From positions 47,402-111,401 of the forward strand of contig CAZTQY010000003.1 of assembly GCA_964616425.1 (NCBI GenBank): a stretch of 64,000 bases of DNA, read 5' to 3'. The position numbers were made by a program, and so were the translations under genes. The notes under the pieces are model-generated. The model was not told the DNA's origin and did no database searches. It worked only from the letters and a program-made list of their open reading frames with translations. The stretch comes from an uncultured Candidatus Saccharibacteria bacterium. Lineage in GTDB: Bacteria; Patescibacteriota; Minisyncoccia; Phycocordibacterales; DATDWN01. Shown one piece after another: positions 1,502 to 59,198 of this stretch; the first letter of the stretch is position 1; every line of letters begins with the position of its first letter.

Positions 1502-4273
1502 ATGAGTATAACAGTCACAAGGCATGATGGTAAAAAAGAACCTTTCAATGCCGATAAAATTAATCGTTCTATAGAAAGAGCATGTTATGGATTGTTCGAT
1601 CCAGTCTCAAAAGTGACTCAAATTGCGACTGAAACTCAACTCACTCTCTATGATGGAATCACAACTGATGAAATGGATCAGGCGACTATCAACGCTGCAG
1701 TTCAAAATATAAAAGATGACATCGAATACGATATTGTCGCAAAAAGACTCCTACTTAAAACTCTGTATAGACAAGTTATAAAGGATTTTCATCCTGGGGA
1801 CGAATCTGAAGTTTTTGCAGGTAAACATAGAAAGAGTTTTGTTGATTTTATAGAGACAGGAGTTGCGAATGGAAAACTTCACCCAGAAATGAAGGCAAAG
1901 TTTAACCTAGATGAACTGGCTAATACACTAAGATTGGAAAGAGATGAGTTGTTTCAATACGCTGGACTAGATGGACTCATAAACCGATATTTAATAAAAG
2001 ATATAAATCAAAAACCAATAGAAGTTCCTCAGTATTTCTTTATGCGAATCGCAATGGGTCTTTCATATAACGAAAGCAATCCAACTGAAATGGCAAAAAA
2101 GTTCTACAATAAAATGTCTAGATTGGAGTATGTTGCCGGCGGTTCTACAAACCTAGCTGCAGGAACTATTAACCCAGCGCTATCAAATTGTTATCTTTTG
2201 GAGATTCAAGATAACATGAACCACATTGCTAAATCTGTATCTGACGTTATGCTTCTATCAAAAGGCTCAGGTGGAATAGGTGCTTCTGTTACAAAACTTC
2301 GTGCTTCAGGTTCTCCACTTAGAAAATATGGAGGTACATCCACAGGACCAACACCATTTGCAAAAATAATCGATACTGCTATACGTGCTATTCAGAGAGG
2401 GGGAAAGAAAAAAGGTGCACTTTGTTTTTATATGGAAAATTGGCATATTGATTTTCCAGAATTTCTTGATTGGAAGAAGAATAATGGTGATGACTATATG
2501 AGAATGAGAACTGCAAACACTGCTGTTTATCTTTCTGACGAGTTTATGAAAAGAGTTTCTGCTGGTGATGATTGGTACATGTTTGATCCAGCTGAAACAG
2601 AAGATCTAAATGAACTTTACGGTGAAGCTTTTTCAAAGAGATATGCAGAATATGTTGAAATGGCAAACTCTGGAAAAATGAGAGTGTTTAAGAAAGCTCC
2701 GGCTACAGAACAATACAGACAAATTTTAACAGAGCTTCAGAGTTCATCTCATCCTTGGTTAGTCTGGAAAGATTCAATTAACCTTCGTGCTCTAAATAAC
2801 AATACAGGTACTATTCATATGAGTAACTTGTGTACAGAAATCTGTCTGCCACAAGATAAAGATAACGTTGCTGTTTGTAACCTCGCGTCTCTTAACCTTG
2901 CAGCTCATATAAAGAACAAAGAAGTAAATTGGGCTAGATTGGAAGAGTCTGTTCGTCTAGCCGTAAGACAACTCGATAATCTTATTGATATCAATGTTCT
3001 ACCTATCCCAGAGGCAGCAAAATCAGATAGTGAGAATCGAGCTGTAGGTTTGGGTGTGATGGGATTTTCAGATACGATAGAGCAACTTGGTATGTCATAT
3101 GATTCTCCTCATGCTTGGGATTTTGCTGACAGGATATTTGAATTTGTTTCTTATATGGCAATCGATGAGTCAGCTAATTTGGCACAAGAGCGGGGTAGTT
3201 ATGCAAACTTTCAAGGTTCTGAGTGGTCAAAGGGTAAAGTTCCAATCGACACACTTTCTACATTGGAAGCCGGCAGAGGCAAACCGCTAACAGTTTCTAA
3301 AGTTAGTAAACACAAGGGTCTGAACTGGGATGTGCTTCGTGCAAAGGTTTCAAAAGGGATAAGAAATGCAACACTAATGGCTGTAGCACCAAACGCGAAC
3401 ATTGGATTGGTTGCTGCAACAACTCCAGGAATAGATGCTAGGTTTGCTCAAGTATTTTCTAGAAATAAAATTTCTGGTAAATATCTTGATATAAATCACA
3501 ACCTCGTAAAGGATTTGATAAACCTTGGATTGTGGGATGATGTAAAAGAACAGATTATTGAAAACCAAGGAGATATTGCTGAAATCGCTCAAATACCTCA
3601 ACACATAAAAGACATATATAAAACTTCTTTCACAACATCACCATTTGCTTATATAGAAGTTGCTGCTCGTGCACAGAAATGGGTAGATCAGGCTTTATCT
3701 AGAAACATGTATCTTGAAACTAGAGATATAGATGAGACAATGAAGATATACAGTACTGCCTGGGAAAAGGGTCTCAAGTCAACATACTATCTCCACATGA
3801 AGCCTCGACATACAGCTGAACAGTCAACTACAAATGTGAACAAGGCAGCAAAGATAGGAAAAGTTGGATTCGGTGCGTTGAATTTCAGCAACTCAAATGC
3901 TTTTGCTTCTCCACTTCAAAAATCTTTTAGTGTTGTAAACCCAAGCCAGGTTGTTGCTAGTGAGCCTTCGATTAGTGAATCTGCTATAAAACAAGCAAAA
4001 GAGGATGCTATATCTAACATAACATTGGAAGAGGAAATATTAGTTTCTACTTCAAAGGCTGTTGAAGAAATTTTACCTAAAAATAATGTTGAGCCTAGTT
4101 TTGAGCCATTACAAAAGTCTATATTAGATCAGAATAAACCTGAGCTAGTTGCACAAATTCAAAAAAACGAATATAAATCACTTGAGCAGGTAAACAATAA
4201 TATTAAGAAATACAATATCATTGCTCCTGAAGATCCAGCTGATAGTGATAACATCTGTATTGCTTGTCAGTAA
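1502..4273 (+). CDS. nrdA: Ribonucleoside-diphosphate reductase alpha subunit (class I) with N-terminal ATP-cone and long C-terminal low-complexity linker ending in a Cys pair
   Basis: ATP-cone at the N-terminus, catalytic motifs (NLCTEI, PxAxxS-like), C-terminal CIACQ. Confidence 0.9.
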   Translation: MSITVTRHDGKKEPFNADKINRSIERACYGLFDPVSKVTQIATETQLTLYDGITTDEMDQATINAAVQNIKDDIEYDIVAKRLLLKTLYRQVIKDFHPGDESEVFAGKHRKSFVDFIETGVANGKLHPEMKAKFNLDELANTLRLERDELFQYAGLDGLINRYLIKDINQKPIEVPQYFFMRIAMGLSYNESNPTEMAKKFYNKMSRLEYVAGGSTNLAAGTINPALSNCYLLEIQDNMNHIAKSVSDVMLLSKGSGGIGASVTKLRASGSPLRKYGGTSTGPTPFAKIIDTAIRAIQRGGKKKGALCFYMENWHIDFPEFLDWKKNNGDDYMRMRTANTAVYLSDEFMKRVSAGDDWYMFDPAETEDLNELYGEAFSKRYAEYVEMANSGKMRVFKKAPATEQYRQILTELQSSSHPWLVWKDSINLRALNNNTGTIHMSNLCTEICLPQDKDNVAVCNLASLNLAAHIKNKEVNWARLEESVRLAVRQLDNLIDINVLPIPEAAKSDSENRAVGLGVMGFSDTIEQLGMSYDSPHAWDFADRIFEFVSYMAIDESANLAQERGSYANFQGSEWSKGKVPIDTLSTLEAGRGKPLTVSKVSKHKGLNWDVLRAKVSKGIRNATLMAVAPNANIGLVAATTPGIDARFAQVFSRNKISGKYLDINHNLVKDLINLGLWDDVKEQIIENQGDIAEIAQIPQHIKDIYKTSFTTSPFAYIEVAARAQKWVDQALSRNMYLETRDIDETMKIYSTAWEKGLKSTYYLHMKPRHTAEQSTTNVNKAAKIGKVGFGALNFSNSNAFASPLQKSFSVVNPSQVVASEPSISESAIKQAKEDAISNITLEEEILVSTSKAVEEILPKNNVEPSFEPLQKSILDQNKPELVAQIQKNEYKSLEQVNNNIKKYNIIAPEDPADSDNICIACQ

Positions 4274-4298: not shown

Positions 4299-5309
4299 AT
4301 GACACTAATTGGAAAACCATCACCAACGGATATGAATTTGCATCCTCTAAATTATAAGTGGGCATATGATTTGTATAACCAAGCTGTTCGAAACACTTGG
4401 TTCCCTCATGAAATAGCACTCAAAGAGGACTTGGAAGATTTTGAGAAAATGACTGAGGATGAGAGACACGCAATCAAGTTTCTTATGGCTTTTTTCAACC
4501 CTGCAGAGCTCATAGTTAACAGATCCATTGCTCTCGGTATATATCCATATTTGAAATCTCCAGAGTGTCACCTATATCTAGCAAAGCAAATGTGGGAAGA
4601 GGCGAACCACTGTGTGTCTTTTGAATATGTTCTAGAAACATTCCCGTTTGATAAAGAGTCTATATTTAACACTCACCTCGAAGTGGCTTCTATGACAGCA
4701 AAGGAGGCTTTCATAAACAGATATCTAACTCGAATGACTGAAGATAAGCTCGATATTGAAACAGTGGATGGTAAGAAAGATTTTATTAGAAACCTAGTTG
4801 CGACAAACATTGTGATGGAGGGTATATGGTTCTACTCAGGCTTTATGGTGGCTCTTTCTTTCCGACAGAGAAACCAACTCAGAAACTTTGGTTCTATGAT
4901 CAACTGGGTTTTGCGAGACGAAAGTTTGCACCTAAAGTTCGGTATTAACTTGGTTCACAATGTGTTGGAGGAAAATACAGAACTACTTACGGAAGAGTTT
5001 GCAGCAGAAATCAGAAACATAATCATCGAAGGAGTTGATCTAGAAGTTGCATACAACAAAGACTTGTTCCCGAACGGTATTTTGGGACTTAATGCTGACT
5101 ATGTAAACCAGTATGTTCAGTATGTGGCGGACAGAAGACTTCAGGAACTTGGAATGCCAAAATACTATAATGTGACTAATCCAGCAAAATGGATGAGTAC
5201 AGCAACAGATGTGTTTGAGTTGGTAAACTTTTTTGAATCACAAAACACAAGTTACGAGGTAGACTCTCACGCAGGGGAATCAAAAAAGAAAGATTCTGCT
5301 TCTGAGTAG
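4299..5309 (+). CDS. nrdB: Ribonucleotide reductase beta subunit (ferritin-like diiron)
   Basis: EEANHCVSFEYVLETF diiron ligand region, directly downstream of nrdA. Confidence 0.9.
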   Translation: MTLIGKPSPTDMNLHPLNYKWAYDLYNQAVRNTWFPHEIALKEDLEDFEKMTEDERHAIKFLMAFFNPAELIVNRSIALGIYPYLKSPECHLYLAKQMWEEANHCVSFEYVLETFPFDKESIFNTHLEVASMTAKEAFINRYLTRMTEDKLDIETVDGKKDFIRNLVATNIVMEGIWFYSGFMVALSFRQRNQLRNFGSMINWVLRDESLHLKFGINLVHNVLEENTELLTEEFAAEIRNIIIEGVDLEVAYNKDLFPNGILGLNADYVNQYVQYVADRRLQELGMPKYYNVTNPAKWMSTATDVFELVNFFESQNTSYEVDSHAGESKKKDSASE

Positions 5310-20333: not shown

Positions 20334-20409
20334 GCCACCTTAGCTCAGTTGGTAGAGCACTCGTTTTGTAAACGAGAGCGGGTCAGTTCGAGCCTGACAG
20401 GTGGCTCCA
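20334..20409 (+). tRNA. tRNA-Thr (anticodon UGU) with encoded CCA
   Basis: Cloverleaf folded by hand: acceptor GCCACCT/AGGTGGC, D-arm GCTC..GAGC, anticodon loop TTTGTAA, T-arm GTCAG-TTCGAGC-CTGAC. Confidence 0.9.
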
Positions 20410-20440: not shown

Positions 20441-20460
20441 TGTTTTCCACAATTTATATT

Positions 20461-20488
20461 GATGGTGAACTTTCGTTCACTTATAATT
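20461..20488 (+). promoter_or_regulatory. Promoter with embedded LexA (Cheo-type) box GAAC-N4-GTTC between -35 and -10
   Basis: tgatg GTGAACtttcGTTCAC t TATAAT. The -10 ends 6 nt before the HNH ATG, so the transcript may be leaderless. Confidence 0.5.
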
Positions 20489-54569: not shown

Positions 54570-55157
54570 TTGCAAACTATCTCAAATTTCATAAAAGAAT
54601 ATCAAAAGACAATACTCTGGGGTATTTTGATTTTTGTCGCAACTGGAGCCATTGAGTATTTTTCTGGTAGATCAGTTTTTGGTCCTGATGGAATGTTTGG
54701 ATGGTGGGAGGGGGGTATTTGGAGTTCAGAAAACTCTCAACGTGTAGCAGATGTTTACACTTTTTCTCACATTATTCACGGGATGTTGTTTTACGCGTTT
54801 CTATGGTTGGTTGCTCGCAAGGTTCCAGCAAAATACAGATTTGTTTTTGCTTTGGGTATCGAGGCTGGCTGGGAACTACTAGAAAACTCGCCGATTATTA
54901 TCGACAGATACAGAGCTGTAACTGTTTCTCTGGGTTATGTTGGTGATAGTATTTTAAATTCTCTTTCAGATATTATGTTTGCGGGGTTGGGATTCTTTAT
55001 TGCAAAGTATTCAAAGTTTTGGATTTCAGTTTTGCTTATTGTCGTTATGGAACTCGGAGCTTTGTATTTTGTCAGAGACAACTTAACTTTAAATATTTTA
55101 ATGCTTGTTTACCCGGTTAAGTTTATTCAAGTTTGGCAATCAGCTGGACACGTATAA
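54570..55157 (+). CDS. Polytopic membrane protein (195 aa)
   Basis: At least 5 TM helices and an IEAGWELLENSP motif. Confidence 0.5.
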   Translation: MQTISNFIKEYQKTILWGILIFVATGAIEYFSGRSVFGPDGMFGWWEGGIWSSENSQRVADVYTFSHIIHGMLFYAFLWLVARKVPAKYRFVFALGIEAGWELLENSPIIIDRYRAVTVSLGYVGDSILNSLSDIMFAGLGFFIAKYSKFWISVLLIVVMELGALYFVRDNLTLNILMLVYPVKFIQVWQSAGHV

Positions 55158-55164
55158 AACGAGT

Positions 55165-55199
55165 TGGCCACCCACGCATGTTGCGGGGTGGCCAGATTT
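55165..55199. terminator. Bidirectional hairpin
   Basis: ggccaccc acgcatgttgcg gggtggcc. Confidence 0.4.
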
Positions 55200-55421
55200 C
55201 TAGAGGGCTATGCCTTGATGTTCCATGGACCACAATAGCAGTCCAATCAACAAGAAGAGCACGATGATGCCGAGTGTGAACGCCCGAGGATGTTTCTCGT
55301 ATAGCTGAGCGAGCTCATCCTCGATTTCTTTGTTTGTTGCGTAAGTGCCCCGGTATTCCAGATTCATGGAGCGCTCGACGTCGGTGGTTAGAGCCTCTGG
55401 GTCGGAGATCTCTTGGGTCAT
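55200..55421 (-). CDS. High-GC cassette N gene 1: 73-aa protein with C-terminal TM helix (start at the internal ATG that has the SD)
   Basis: SD gaggaggg 4 nt upstream of ATG at 55421. C-terminal LGIIVLFLLIGLLLW. Confidence 0.45.
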   Translation of the reverse strand: MTQEISDPEALTTDVERSMNLEYRGTYATNKEIEDELAQLYEKHPRAFTLGIIVLFLLIGLLLWSMEHQGIAL

Positions 55422-55454
55422 GCACCCTCCTCTCAAAATAGCATACAGAAGTGT

Positions 55455-55505
55455 AGAATTTTTTCAAATAAGGAAAGGGCCGTCACCTTTGTAAGATGAC
55501 GGCCT
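55455..55505 (-). terminator. Minus-strand terminator for the small ORF 55549-55719
   Basis: ggccgtca..tgacggcc followed on the minus strand by ctttccttatttg. Confidence 0.5.
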
Positions 55506-55548
55506 TGTATTGCGGATTGTGTGGTGGGGGGGTCTTGCGGGGAACTTG

Positions 55549-55719
55549 CTACTTCTGTACTTCTCGTACGACGTAGCCCGTTTCTGGGCTCCATGCGCGG
55601 ACGACGACCTTGGATTCGGGCTGGTCCTGTTTTTCCTCGACCAACTTGACCTCGTCGAGGGCCAGGAAGTGACGGGGAACCACGTGCCCGACGGAACGGC
55701 GACTCCTTAGTGACGGCAT
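55549..55719 (-). CDS. High-GC cassette N gene 2: 56-aa protein (not in the supplied ORF track; below its length cut-off)
   Basis: SD aggaga 6 nt upstream of ATG at 55719, followed by a terminator. MPSLRSRRSVGHVVPRHFLALDEVKLVEEKQDQPESKVVVRAWSPETGYVVREVQK. Confidence 0.35.
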   Translation of the reverse strand: MPSLRSRRSVGHVVPRHFLALDEVKLVEEKQDQPESKVVVRAWSPETGYVVREVQK

Positions 55720-55866
55720 ATTTGTCTCCTACATAAATAGTAGCACAGTATGGTATATATGTCAAGTATATTTAAATATCAATATTTTAACGTATTTTTG
55801 AATAAAAAATTTAGGAAATAAGTTTTGTGATATAATTTCTTCATTAAAATTTAATTTTTTAAAAAA

Positions 55867-56361: not shown

Positions 56362-56760
56362 ATGAAAAACAGAGTCGTCCATTTTGAAATATATGCAGAT
56401 GACGTAGAACGTGCAAAGAAATTCTATGCTGATGTTTTTGGTTGGGAATTTACTGATTGGTCTGGTGTTACTGGCACTCCATACTGGGGAGTTATGACTG
56501 CTCCAATGGGAAGTGCTGAACCTGGAATAAACGGTGGACTAATGAAAAGACGAGGACCACAAGTTTCTCCAGATATTGCTGTTATAGGATATGTCTGCAC
56601 AGTTCAAGTAGAAAATATCGATGAAATAATATCAAAAGTTGAGAACGCTGGCGGTGTTGTATCGATGCCAAAATATGCTTTGGGAGATATGGCTGTGCAG
56701 GCATACTACAAAGATACTGAAGGAAATGTTTTCGGGATTCATCAGGTGATAAAGAAATAA
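56362..56760 (+). CDS. VOC-family (glyoxalase/bleomycin-resistance-like) protein
   Basis: VHFEIYADD..FGWEF..GINGGLM..GNVFGIH motifs. Confidence 0.8.
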   Translation: MKNRVVHFEIYADDVERAKKFYADVFGWEFTDWSGVTGTPYWGVMTAPMGSAEPGINGGLMKRRGPQVSPDIAVIGYVCTVQVENIDEIISKVENAGGVVSMPKYALGDMAVQAYYKDTEGNVFGIHQVIKK

Positions 56761-56806
56761 TTGCAAATAGTTTTTTCTTGTATAGAATAAAAAATAGAGG
56801 TGGCCG

Positions 56807-57310
56807 ATGAAGCCGTTCGCTGAGTTGTTGGGGTCTAACAAGGAAAACACCTTCAACTTTTTTCTTTACGGACTGGGTGAGGTAACCGGCAGAAAGAGTG
56901 AGAGTGATCGTGAACTGATGTATGTTACAAGTATTCTGGCACACTTTGCCGGAACACCTTGCTCCTCGAAATACAGGCCGTTTGTTACGCCCACAGATTT
57001 TCGTGTAGTGGTCGATAACTTCGTACTTGGGAGCATTGCGTTTTATGACTCCCATTGTCTTGCAGACGGAGGGGCCAAGACCCTGTTTTTGGCCGGGTTC
57101 TTCCGTAGTCAGATGGCGGGTAGGCATAACGTAAACTGGTGTGACAGTGTTGGCTCGAGTTTGTTCAGACGCGCCGCATCAGTATCCTCAAGTAGGAGAG
57201 AAGCTATCCTGTTTGAAGGTCTCTCACACAGTTTCACCTACTGGACTTTCGTTTGTTCAGAGTTGCAAAAGCATCTACACGAAAGCAGGCTTATGATCAA
57301 AAGTTTGTAA
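56807..57310 (+). CDS. High-GC cassette O: hypothetical 167-aa protein
   Basis: SD agaggtgg, GC about 52%, and a terminator. Confidence 0.45.
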   Translation: MKPFAELLGSNKENTFNFFLYGLGEVTGRKSESDRELMYVTSILAHFAGTPCSSKYRPFVTPTDFRVVVDNFVLGSIAFYDSHCLADGGAKTLFLAGFFRSQMAGRHNVNWCDSVGSSLFRRAASVSSSRREAILFEGLSHSFTYWTFVCSELQKHLHESRLMIKSL

Positions 57311-57321
57311 ATCGTGATTGG

Positions 57322-57358
57322 AAAGGGGCTGGGTATTCGTACCCATGCCCCTTTGTCG
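57322..57358 (+). terminator. Terminator of cassette O
   Basis: aggggctgggtattcgtacccatgcccct followed by ttgtcg. Confidence 0.55.
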
Positions 57359-57388
57359 TAGTTATCCACATATTCTTTATTAACAATG

Positions 57389-57418
57389 TTGACCAGTGAA
57401 CCCTAGTTCACTTATAAT
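57389..57418 (+). promoter_or_regulatory. lexA operon promoter with embedded LexA box (GAAC-N4-GTTC)
   Basis: TTGACC a GTGAACcctaGTTCAC t TATAAT. Confidence 0.55.
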
Positions 57419-57469
57419 AAAAACATAACAAATTACCAGGGTTTAGATTATAAGTTTAACTATCAAAAT

Positions 57470-57661
57470 ATGAGTAAACAAAATTTTGAAAAATCATTGA
57501 AAAAAGAGTTGAGGGTCATAAATGAAATTATAGATATGAAAATTATCCGTGGTCTGTCATATGCTAACGAAGCAAAGAGACATAAGTTTATTCTTTCTAG
57601 TCTTGCAAATATAAAGAGAGCAAATTCTAACTGGATGGTGAGGACATTTAATTTTGCCTAA
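57470..57661 (+). CDS. Small hypothetical protein (63 aa) overlapping the lexA start by 8 nt
   Basis: Co-oriented with lexA and lies downstream of the LexA-box promoter. Confidence 0.4.
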   Translation: MSKQNFEKSLKKELRVINEIIDMKIIRGLSYANEAKRHKFILSSLANIKRANSNWMVRTFNFA

Positions 57662-58241
57662 AATGAGTAACGAAAAATATTCAACATATAGAGACCGTAT
57701 ACTTTCTTTTTATCGAAAGAACCGACGTATGCCTGGGTATAAAGAGATAATGACTCTGGTTGGTTTCAAATCAAAAAATGCAGTCTATAAACTTATCAAC
57801 AAACTAGTTGATGATGGTATTGTAGACAAAGACTCTGAAGGGCATTTAACTCCTATGAAAATTTTTGGCGAAGTTCCACTGCTTGGACTTGTTGAAGCCG
57901 GAATACCAACAACTGTGGACCAAGGTACTGACACACTGAGTTTGGAGGAATATCTGATAGGTGGTAAAAAAAGCTCCGTTTACTTGCTCGAGGTAAAAGG
58001 AGACTCCATGATTGACGAAGGAATACACGAAGGTGACTTGGTTTTGGTTGAGCGTCGTGGGGATCCAAAAGATGGAGATATAGTTATCGCTGAAGTAGAT
58101 GGTGGTTGGACAATGAAATATTTTAAAAAGAAAGGAAGTATCGTGTACCTCAAAGCCGCTAACAAAAACTATTCACCAATATATCCTCAGTATGATTTGA
58201 AAGTGGCAGCTATAGTAAAGGGTGTTATTCGTAAGTACTAA
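57654..58241 (+). CDS. lexA: LexA repressor (S24 peptidase)
   Basis: N-terminal winged HTH, GDSM catalytic Ser, and a downstream Lys. Confidence 0.9.
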   Translation: MPKMSNEKYSTYRDRILSFYRKNRRMPGYKEIMTLVGFKSKNAVYKLINKLVDDGIVDKDSEGHLTPMKIFGEVPLLGLVEAGIPTTVDQGTDTLSLEEYLIGGKKSSVYLLEVKGDSMIDEGIHEGDLVLVERRGDPKDGDIVIAEVDGGWTMKYFKKKGSIVYLKAANKNYSPIYPQYDLKVAAIVKGVIRKY

Positions 58242-58276
58242 ATTTCTGGTCTTTTTGCCCGATTTCTACGTTGCTA

Positions 58277-58330
58277 GTTTTGTTTGTTTCCGCAGAGTAC
58301 TAAATGTACACTTTGGTCACAAACAAAACG
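58277..58330 (+). repeat. Hairpin family beta copy 2
   Basis: gttttgtttgtttc [cgcagagtactaaatgtacactttggtca] caaacaaaac. Core about 80% identical to 9350-9381, stems unrelated but complementary. Confidence 0.4.
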
Positions 58331-58391
58331 TCGCGCCTTGAACTCAAACAAAAATCCTCAGAAATTACAATCATGAATATTTTTAATTTAT

Positions 58392-58679
58392 ATGAAAGTT
58401 CTTAAGTTCAAGTCTCAGGTTTGGAGATGGCCAGGGGATATGGGCTGGCATTTTGTTACTTTACCAAAAAAGCTTTCCGAAGAGATAAAAGAGGTTGGCA
58501 AAATCTATGGCGCTGGATTTATAAAGGTAAAAGCTACTGTTGGAGATAGTGTCTGGGTTACAGCACTTTTCCCCCATAAGATGTCAAAAGCATATTTACT
58601 CTCAATAAAGCAAAATATACGAAAAAAGGAAGGAATCTGGGAAGGTGATATAATACAAGCATCATTAACCCTAGAATAA
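58392..58679 (+). CDS. DUF1905-like small protein
   Basis: WRWPGDMGWHFVTLP pattern. Confidence 0.5.
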   Translation: MKVLKFKSQVWRWPGDMGWHFVTLPKKLSEEIKEVGKIYGAGFIKVKATVGDSVWVTALFPHKMSKAYLLSIKQNIRKKEGIWEGDIIQASLTLE

Positions 58680-58680
58680 A

Positions 58681-58932
58681 ATGAGAATCTTTGTAAAAGT
58701 TAAAGCGGGTAGTAAACAAAACAAAATAGAAGAACCTCCACAGAGACTTTTGCAAGCGGATGAACGCCTGGACGACTACTACACGGTTTATGTTAAAGAG
58801 CCTCCAGTTGAAGGAAAAGCAAATGATGCAGTTATCAGAGTGATAGCTGAACATTTTGATCTCCCTAGATCTCATGTAACTTTGATATCTGGTGCTGTAT
58901 CAAAAATAAAAGTTTTTGAAATATTGAGATGA
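58681..58932 (+). CDS. DUF167/YggU-family protein
   Basis: ..GKANDAVIRVIAEHFDLPRSHVTLISGAVSKIKVF. Confidence 0.7.
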   Translation: MRIFVKVKAGSKQNKIEEPPQRLLQADERLDDYYTVYVKEPPVEGKANDAVIRVIAEHFDLPRSHVTLISGAVSKIKVFEILR

Positions 58933-59198
58933 TAGTAAATAAATCTTTTTCAGATAAAGTTCGTGATGTAGTTAAAAAAATACCTAAAGGCAAGGTCCTA
59001 ACCTATAAAGAAGTCGCGAGAAAGGCCGGAAATGAGAAAGCCAGTCGAGCAGTGGGAAGTATTATGAAGAAAAACTACGATAACACTATTCCTTGTCACA
59101 GGGTTATACGTTCCGATGGCACTGCTGGTGAATATAACAGAGGAGGCTCAAAGAAGAAGCTAATGATCTTAAAAAGTGAAGGTGTTTTGTTAAGTTAA
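58929..59198 (+). CDS. Methylated-DNA-protein-cysteine methyltransferase DNA-binding-domain protein (MGMT family)
   Basis: PCHRVI motif. Start overlaps the upstream stop (ATGA). Confidence 0.75.
   Translation: MIVNKSFSDKVRDVVKKIPKGKVLTYKEVARKAGNEKASRAVGSIMKKNYDNTIPCHRVIRSDGTAGEYNRGGSKKKLMILKSEGVLLS

Follow-up and report, generated by a model that had tools for sequence, protein, structure and literature searches.

The SOS core of lexA, dinB and umuDC is shared across phyla (PMC8565304), and the LexA consensus of Gram-positive bacteria is GAAC-N4-GTTC (PMC11442139). Boxes of the Cheo type, found in Bacillus subtilis, Staphylococcus aureus and Mycobacterium, have a palindromic core of this form (PMC11442139). 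They lie in lexA's own promoter, over the RNA polymerase contacts, and genes for error-prone polymerases are also controlled in these systems. To our knowledge, autoregulation of lexA is universal. Small LexA-controlled genes adjoin lexA in several of these bacteria and encode YneA in B. subtilis, SosA in S. aureus, ChiZ in M. tuberculosis and DivS in Corynebacterium. Both YneA, which has a LysM domain, and SosA cross the membrane once, and their genes are usually divergent from lexA; SulA is a non-membrane protein with a Pfam family of its own. SosA is reportedly not conserved even within the staphylococci (PMC11442139). Small proteins that work together with a repressor have also been described: gp7 of phage GIL01 is a co-factor of the host LexA that boosts operator binding and inhibits RecA-mediated cleavage (PMC4551915), and DdrR of Acinetobacter is a co-repressor encoded beside the LexA-like repressor UmuDAb (PMC7273328).

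The locus described here lies in a window of 64,000 nucleotides, the whole stretch of DNA that was analysed, and its host is a Zambryskibacteria-like Patescibacterium of the Parcubacteria/Paceibacteria. For Patescibacteria, the same superphylum, a study by Sanchez-Osuna, Barbe and Erill (2017, Environ Microbiol 19:3465) reportedly described the SOS network with its LexA motif and regulon. In PMC7739468, a later paper from the same laboratory, that study is cited among cases in which LexA has evolved to direct-repeat recognition, and it is also cited in PMC8565304.

At 57389-57418 the window reads TTGACC-a-GTGAACcctaGTTCAC-t-TATAAT, 5' of a 63-aa ORF and lexA. The consensus promoter scan ranked this as the top sigma-70-like site within 56700-58800, with 11 of 12 hexamer positions matched and an 18-nt spacer, and transcription would start near 57425. 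The upstream gene ORF167 (56807-57310), which by tblastn encodes a conserved hypothetical protein of 167 aa, ends in a terminator-like hairpin, so that the lexA promoter stands alone and insulated in its intergenic region. The features are collected in Table 1.

Table 1. Features of the lexA operon, its promoter and the second operator-containing promoter in the window
Feature	Position	Strand	Evidence and remarks
-35 hexamer TTGACC	57389..57394	+	Promoter scan; followed by the single base a at 57395
Candidate LexA operator (SOS box) GTGAAC-CCTA-GTTCAC	57396..57411		Perfect 16-base palindrome filling the promoter spacer
-10 hexamer TATAAT	57413..57418	+	1 nt past the operator; preceded by the base t at 57412
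Terminator-like hairpin GGGGCTGGGTA-TTCG-TACCCATGCCCC, then TTTGT	57325..57351	+	Terminator scan, RNA fold; closes ORF167
First operon gene, for a conserved basic helical-hairpin protein of 63 aa	57470..57661	+	Conservation, pN/pS, AlphaFold2
lexA, 192 aa	57663..58241	+	Peptidase_S24, TIGR00498, structure alignment, homologue lengths, public gene calls
DUF1905, DUF167/YggU and minimal MGMT-like alkyltransferase (89 aa, PCHR active-site motif)	58392..59198	+	Pfam
Second promoter TTGATG, GTGAACtttcGTTCAC (GTGAAC-TTTC-GTTCAC), t, TATAAT	20459..20487	+	Same operator-in-spacer design
HNH endonuclease gene, 139 aa	20495..20914	+	Pfam HNH; just past tRNA-Thr (20334-20409)

The original prediction had placed a palindrome in the -35/-10 spacer of the lexA-operon promoter, and its letters and coordinates are exact. 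Its proposed match to the Cheo-type consensus CGAACRNRYGTTYC held for the 8-base core but not beyond it: the site reads TGAAC-CCTA-GTTCA, with T and A in the flanks instead of C, and CCTA misfits RNRY. The consensus of the lineage is GTGAAC-N4-GTTCAC. The flanks are GT/AC where Cheo-type boxes have C/G (CGAAC...GTTCG), and N4 lacks the RNRY preference of the latter. The locus also differs from Cheo-type systems in having just one operator, with a fixed place exactly between -35 and -10, and in that the host is a Patescibacterium. The site is very probably a LexA operator of the GAAC-N4-GTTC class with lineage-specific flanks, and an ordinary kind of switch.

Conservation of the operator was examined in relatives by scanning one genome per species, which gave 80 lexA loci with LexA proteins 58-96% identical to that of the window. 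The 500 nt 5' of each lexA were searched for the 8-base core with at most one mismatch, and the flanking GT/AC was not demanded. The perfect 16-mer was found within this distance in 74 of the 80 loci; a wider search yielded four further perfect 16-mers at 512-779 nt and one copy with a single mismatch. One of the 80 loci is uninformative, with only 246 nt of upstream DNA, and the denominator is thus 79. The perfect 16-mer occupies the same promoter position in 78 of the 79 informative loci, so the palindrome is kept upstream of lexA orthologues, the point on which the original prediction had made itself open to refutation. The relatives' operators all lie between a -35 element (TTGAC or TTGCA) and a -10 element (TATAAT or TATACT) and end 1-2 nt before the latter. 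Across the 78 promoters the arms, including the GT/AC flanks, do not vary (about 2 bits at each position), and N4 conveys almost no information (0.3-0.4 bits). Synonymous sites of the adjacent small gene have reached saturation (pS 0.44-0.93, mostly >0.55); unconstrained DNA would therefore not have kept 12 bases over such divergence.

The product of the second gene of the operon carries an S24 peptidase domain (PF00717, E=1.2e-25 in Pfam) and scores 114.6 bits against TIGR00498, the NCBI equivalog model for LexA (COG1974), with a cut-off of 110.95 and an alignment that begins at residue 17. Its residues 15-191 align with the LexA structures of T. maritima (3K2Z) and E. coli (7B5G). In these alignments the serine of GDSM and the lysine of TMKYF fall on the catalytic residues of both proteins, and LVEAGIP, with the Ala-Gly cleavage site, lies opposite VAAGEP of E. 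coli LexA. On the N-terminal domain the Pfam model LexA_DNA_bind found no match at E<0.01, yet residues 15-70 align to the winged-helix N-domains of the solved LexA structures, which suggests a DNA-binding domain that is divergent but still alignable. The nearest homologues share 78-93% identity with it and have 192-193 aa; those with a name are annotated as LexA in MAGs of Parcubacteria, Zambryskibacteria and Paceibacterota. By domain content, structural alignment and homology, the downstream protein is a true LexA. The order and strand of the 63-aa ORF and lexA were as originally proposed; the 8-nt overlap between them was probably an artefact of a TTG start at 57654. In public gene calls lexA begins 2 nt beyond the end of the small ORF, and these calls together with the length of the homologues indicate that lexA most likely starts at ATG 57663, 1 nt past the TAA of the small ORF and hence without the overlap.

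Metagenome contigs were then scanned for the composite of operator plus -10 element, GTGAACNNNNGTTCACYTATAMT, and at least 120 loci were found. Among the matches listed, a lexA or S24 gene lies downstream in 98 of 120 metagenomic loci. The arrangement of box, small ORF and lexA accounts for 62 loci among these listed matches. In another 33 of the listed matches the box stands directly before lexA or an umuD-like S24 gene, without the small ORF, and most of these 33 S24 genes are leaderless, with the ATG 6-7 nt past the -10. Three of the listed loci (L083, L104 and L181) have the box followed by a leaderless lexA and then the small ORF. Among the remaining listed matches with enough sequence, three have a leaderless gene for a Y-family polymerase (IMS domains) behind the composite. 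The composite is also found before genes for a phage small terminase subunit (Terminase_2) and for N6 DNA methylase/Eco57I-like proteins (L125, L187, L085 and L124), which suggests that prophage and restriction-modification genes are SOS-controlled in these metagenomic lineages; a LexA-controlled terminase operon is already known from S. aureus pathogenicity islands (PMC11442139). In the loci sampled, recA was not among the targets behind the operator. In sister lineages with higher GC the genes for LexA, Y-family polymerase and umuD-like proteins that stand behind this operator are leaderless, their ATG being 6-7 nt past the -10 (L082-L201, for example L082, L095, L120, L108, L186 and L201). 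Viral contigs gave one match, without a -35 element and next to unrelated genes, which is probably due to chance.

Whether the palindrome could be a functionless chance feature of an AT-rich promoter depends on how much of it is considered. The 8-base core GAACNNNNGTTC (GAAC-N4-GTTC) by itself is at chance frequency in the window, with two copies against 1.14 expected; 29 of 100 shuffles reach two copies, and the core alone is thus not significant. The full 16-mer GTGAACNNNNGTTCAC (GTGAAC-N4-GTTCAC) behaves differently: it too has two copies in the window, the second at 20465-20480, both located 1 nt 5' of a TATAAT, and none of 100 dinucleotide-preserving shuffles gave any. In 1.25 Mb comprising the window and the related loci there are 81 perfect 16-mers, of which 79 are at lexA. 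With the arms invariant in all but one of the informative species despite saturated synonymous divergence, the conservation data have already refuted the functionless reading, and its probability is negligible. Weaker sites with up to two mismatches number 22 in the window against 40.7 expected, which leaves no hidden second tier of sites there. A functional palindrome might still serve a regulator other than LexA, for example the small protein or some unlinked repressor, and a small basic protein is indeed encoded behind every such promoter in this clade. We regard this as highly improbable. The operator is in the same place in the 33 listed lexA or umuD-like loci that have no small ORF, so that LexA is the one factor common to all these promoters. 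It also precedes Y-family polymerase genes, its core is the motif established for LexA of Gram-positive bacteria (PMC11442139), and a two-fold symmetric 16-mer suits a LexA dimer. The LexA identity of the downstream protein, the conserved position and the canonical SOS genes behind the composite all point to a LexA operator of the GAAC-N4-GTTC type, as had been predicted. The palindrome at 57396-57411 is thus very probably the LexA operator of an autoregulated SOS operon.

For this operon we infer that LexA binds, that RNA polymerase is occluded and that induction depends on RecA, in the following way. A LexA dimer would bind GTGAAC-N4-GTTCAC with one winged-helix domain on each arm. Since the operator takes up the 18-nt spacer, with a single nucleotide between it and the -10, bound LexA is proposed to exclude RNA polymerase. 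Upon DNA damage, RecA-stimulated self-cleavage at the Ala-Gly bond would leave less LexA on the operator, and the operon would be transcribed from about 57425 to give the 63-aa protein, then LexA, and possibly the DUF1905, YggU and MGMT-like proteins. Translation of lexA would be coupled to that of the small ORF through the TAA-A-ATG junction. The same operator-in-spacer design would also drive the HNH promoter in the window and the metagenomic genes for Y-family polymerase and umuD-like proteins.

The first gene of the operon was examined as well. The small ORF lies upstream of lexA in 80 of 80 relatives, a conservation that the original prediction had proposed to look for, and the gap between the two genes is usually 1-30 nt. 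Its pN of 0.08-0.35 stands against the saturated pS given above, and this substitution pattern shows the small ORF to be a genuine gene that is under purifying selection. The protein follows the pattern M-S-K..L....E...LN..ID.KII.G..Y..EA.RHK.L...L, to which are joined a linker that differs in length, W..R and a C-terminus of hydrophobic character. The residues N18, D22, G28, Y31 and H38 do not vary among 75 sequences. When 1.84 billion representative proteins were searched with a profile, 311 clusters were obtained at E<=1e-3, all of them small proteins, and the cluster look-ups returned only the annotation 'hypothetical protein'. In the AlphaFold2 prediction (mean pLDDT 78) the protein forms a helical hairpin from two helices, 3-26 and 31-62. 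The 75 sequences are very basic, with a median pI of 10.5 and a net charge of +8; the linker is variable and basic, and the conserved C-terminus is hydrophobic or aromatic. A transmembrane segment was not found in the 75 sequences, the top 19-residue Kyte-Doolittle window being 1.16 and the median 0.26. The small protein had no match in Pfam, NCBIfam, the PDB sequence profile search or Foldseek against PDB; for Pfam, including SulA (PF03846) and LysM, this holds at E<=0.01 for the window protein and at E<=1 for three homologues.

In some public gene calls for homologues of the small ORF (P0175, P0187, P0244 and P0266) the N-terminus is over-extended and contains 'ERSFTYT'-like peptides. Read in frame, 'ERSFTYT' is the translated SOS box plus -10, an annotation artefact that marks the operator, which indicates that the operator also precedes distant members of the small-protein family. 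In some relatives an extra conserved small ORF is located between the hairpin-protein gene and lexA (L057, L068, L070 and L073; L041 and L048). One type has 54-58 aa and starts with M[ST]K[SN]KILYS..GF.KFR..FGD, and the other type, in L041 and L048, has 41 aa.

Like the genes for YneA, SosA, ChiZ and DivS, the gene for the small protein is apparently LexA-controlled and adjoins lexA. In contrast to YneA and SosA, however, its product is predicted to be a soluble basic helical hairpin without a transmembrane segment, LysM or SulA domain, and its gene would be co-transcribed and translationally coupled with lexA. Rather than acting as a classical downstream effector, the small protein may be a partner in the LexA circuit, either as a co-repressor or by modulating RecA or the cleavage of LexA; we favour this reading tentatively and give it less than even confidence. 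Adjacency to lexA in either gene order, translational coupling and universality in the clade together point to a role in the LexA circuit, and the other members of the regulon come and go, unlike the small protein. Strict linkage in both gene orders points to a LexA partner at least as strongly as to a division inhibitor; operon linkage alone cannot separate a LexA partner from an effector that needs co-induction. The role of gp7 is of the kind that such linkage suggests, gp7 itself being phage-encoded; the small protein has no sequence similarity to it (PDB profile search, E<=10) and no fold match (Foldseek against PDB). DdrR resembles the small protein in being lineage-restricted and under the same operator as the adjacent S24 repressor, but it is divergently transcribed, comes from a different phylum and has no detectable homology to it. 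Without homology to gp7 or DdrR, the small protein might be said to work like them, not to be a member of either family. The broader proposal, that it is a new chromosomal LexA partner across all Paceibacteria sampled and makes the SOS switch a two-protein module, a cellular counterpart of gp7 or DdrR, is conceivable but somewhat unlikely.

An SOS effector that blocks cell division, as SulA, YneA, SosA, ChiZ and DivS do, is in our estimate an unlikely role for the small protein. The Gram-positive inhibitors are also small, LexA-controlled and adjoin lexA. In Pseudomonas, lexA and sulA are co-transcribed. The W-x-x-R motif and the hydrophobic tail could be a membrane-targeting or degradation signal. 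YneA, SosA, SidA, DidA and ChiZ are membrane proteins, whereas the small protein lacks a transmembrane segment; matches to SulA, LysM or another Pfam family are likewise missing. The core SOS regulon of Gram-positive bacteria includes a cell-division inhibitor (PMC7739468), and SosA, with 77 aa, is encoded upstream of lexA (PMC11442139), but the five residues invariant across a class-level clade make the small protein far better conserved than SosA. Because its gene opens the lexA operon, it would moreover be produced whenever LexA is. Effectors of another kind that merely share the lexA transcript, such as a basic factor that binds DNA, the replisome or the clamp, or a peripheral-membrane toxin, are in our estimate about as unlikely. 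The high pI and net charge would fit such a factor, and a basic linker followed by a hydrophobic or aromatic C-terminus would be an apt design for binding nucleic acid and docking through a short tail; against this, no homology backs any such role, the tail is without the glutamine of clamp-binding motifs, and adjacency to lexA in both gene orders exceeds what co-regulation needs.

Scans of the 150-nt gap between lexA and the DUF1905 gene found no promoter or terminator. In 19-24 relatives the DUF1905, YggU and MGMT-like genes follow lexA in the same direction, and in several of these relatives they directly adjoin its stop codon. They may be the distal genes of the operon, forming a DNA-repair extension of the SOS operon.

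The second perfect 16-mer of the window lies in the promoter of the HNH endonuclease gene (Table 1), whose ATG is 7 nt past the -10, so that the gene is nearly leaderless. The box is kept, with a different N4 (TATA), only in the closest relative at 88% identity; it is missing in relatives at 61-71% identity, where a plain extended -10 is found instead. The HNH gene is a putative lineage-specific member of the SOS regulon. With the box confined to the closest relative, it is not ancient, and recruitment of the gene into the regulon looks recent. The HNH gene family is syntenic and chromosomal in Parcubacteria, in the order rpsB, tsf, hypothetical gene, tRNA and HNH, and this synteny rules out a mobile homing endonuclease.

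The operator follows textbook SOS logic and offers a very clean natural case of it, with 12 invariant bases fixed in the promoter spacer, class-wide, in uncultured bacteria. Given how few genomic copies lie away from lexA (two of 81), the 16-mer is a ready-made and highly specific SOS-regulon probe for Patescibacteria metagenomes. The regulon appears small and plastic: lexA, Y-family polymerase and umuD-like genes are joined sporadically by the HNH nuclease, restriction-modification methylases and phage terminase. The small LexA-linked protein is moderately interesting, more so than the operator, and worth an experiment. It forms at least 311 sequence clusters, is unannotated, and is found beside lexA wherever genomic context could be examined, in minimal-genome organisms whose kept genes are unlikely to be dispensable. 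Should it prove to modulate LexA or RecA, or to represent a new type of division inhibitor, a pathway with fifty years of research behind it would gain a component.

Several other features of the window were noted. Two islands of about 50% GC, at 55150-55750 and 56807-57310, stand out from the window mean of 38.7% GC. For the island at 55150-55750 no convincing ORF was identified, Rfam gave no match, and relatives showed no nucleotide conservation. The GC-rich stretch 5' of the lexA promoter was considered as a non-coding RNA and rejected, with no Rfam match at E<=1 and a modest folding score (z=-2.9); it is the ORF167 gene. The nrdAB genes are reportedly a possible SOS target according to the Patescibacteria literature. 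In the window nrdA, for ribonucleotide reductase, is at 1502-4273 and nrdB at 4299-5309, and no SOS box lies upstream of nrdA, and nrdAB was rejected as an SOS target here. A perfect 17-bp inverted repeat (AAATATCTGCAATTTTT, gaag, AAAAATTGCAGATATTT) is located at 1410-1447, 55 nt 5' of nrdA, and may be the site of another regulator or an RNA hairpin.
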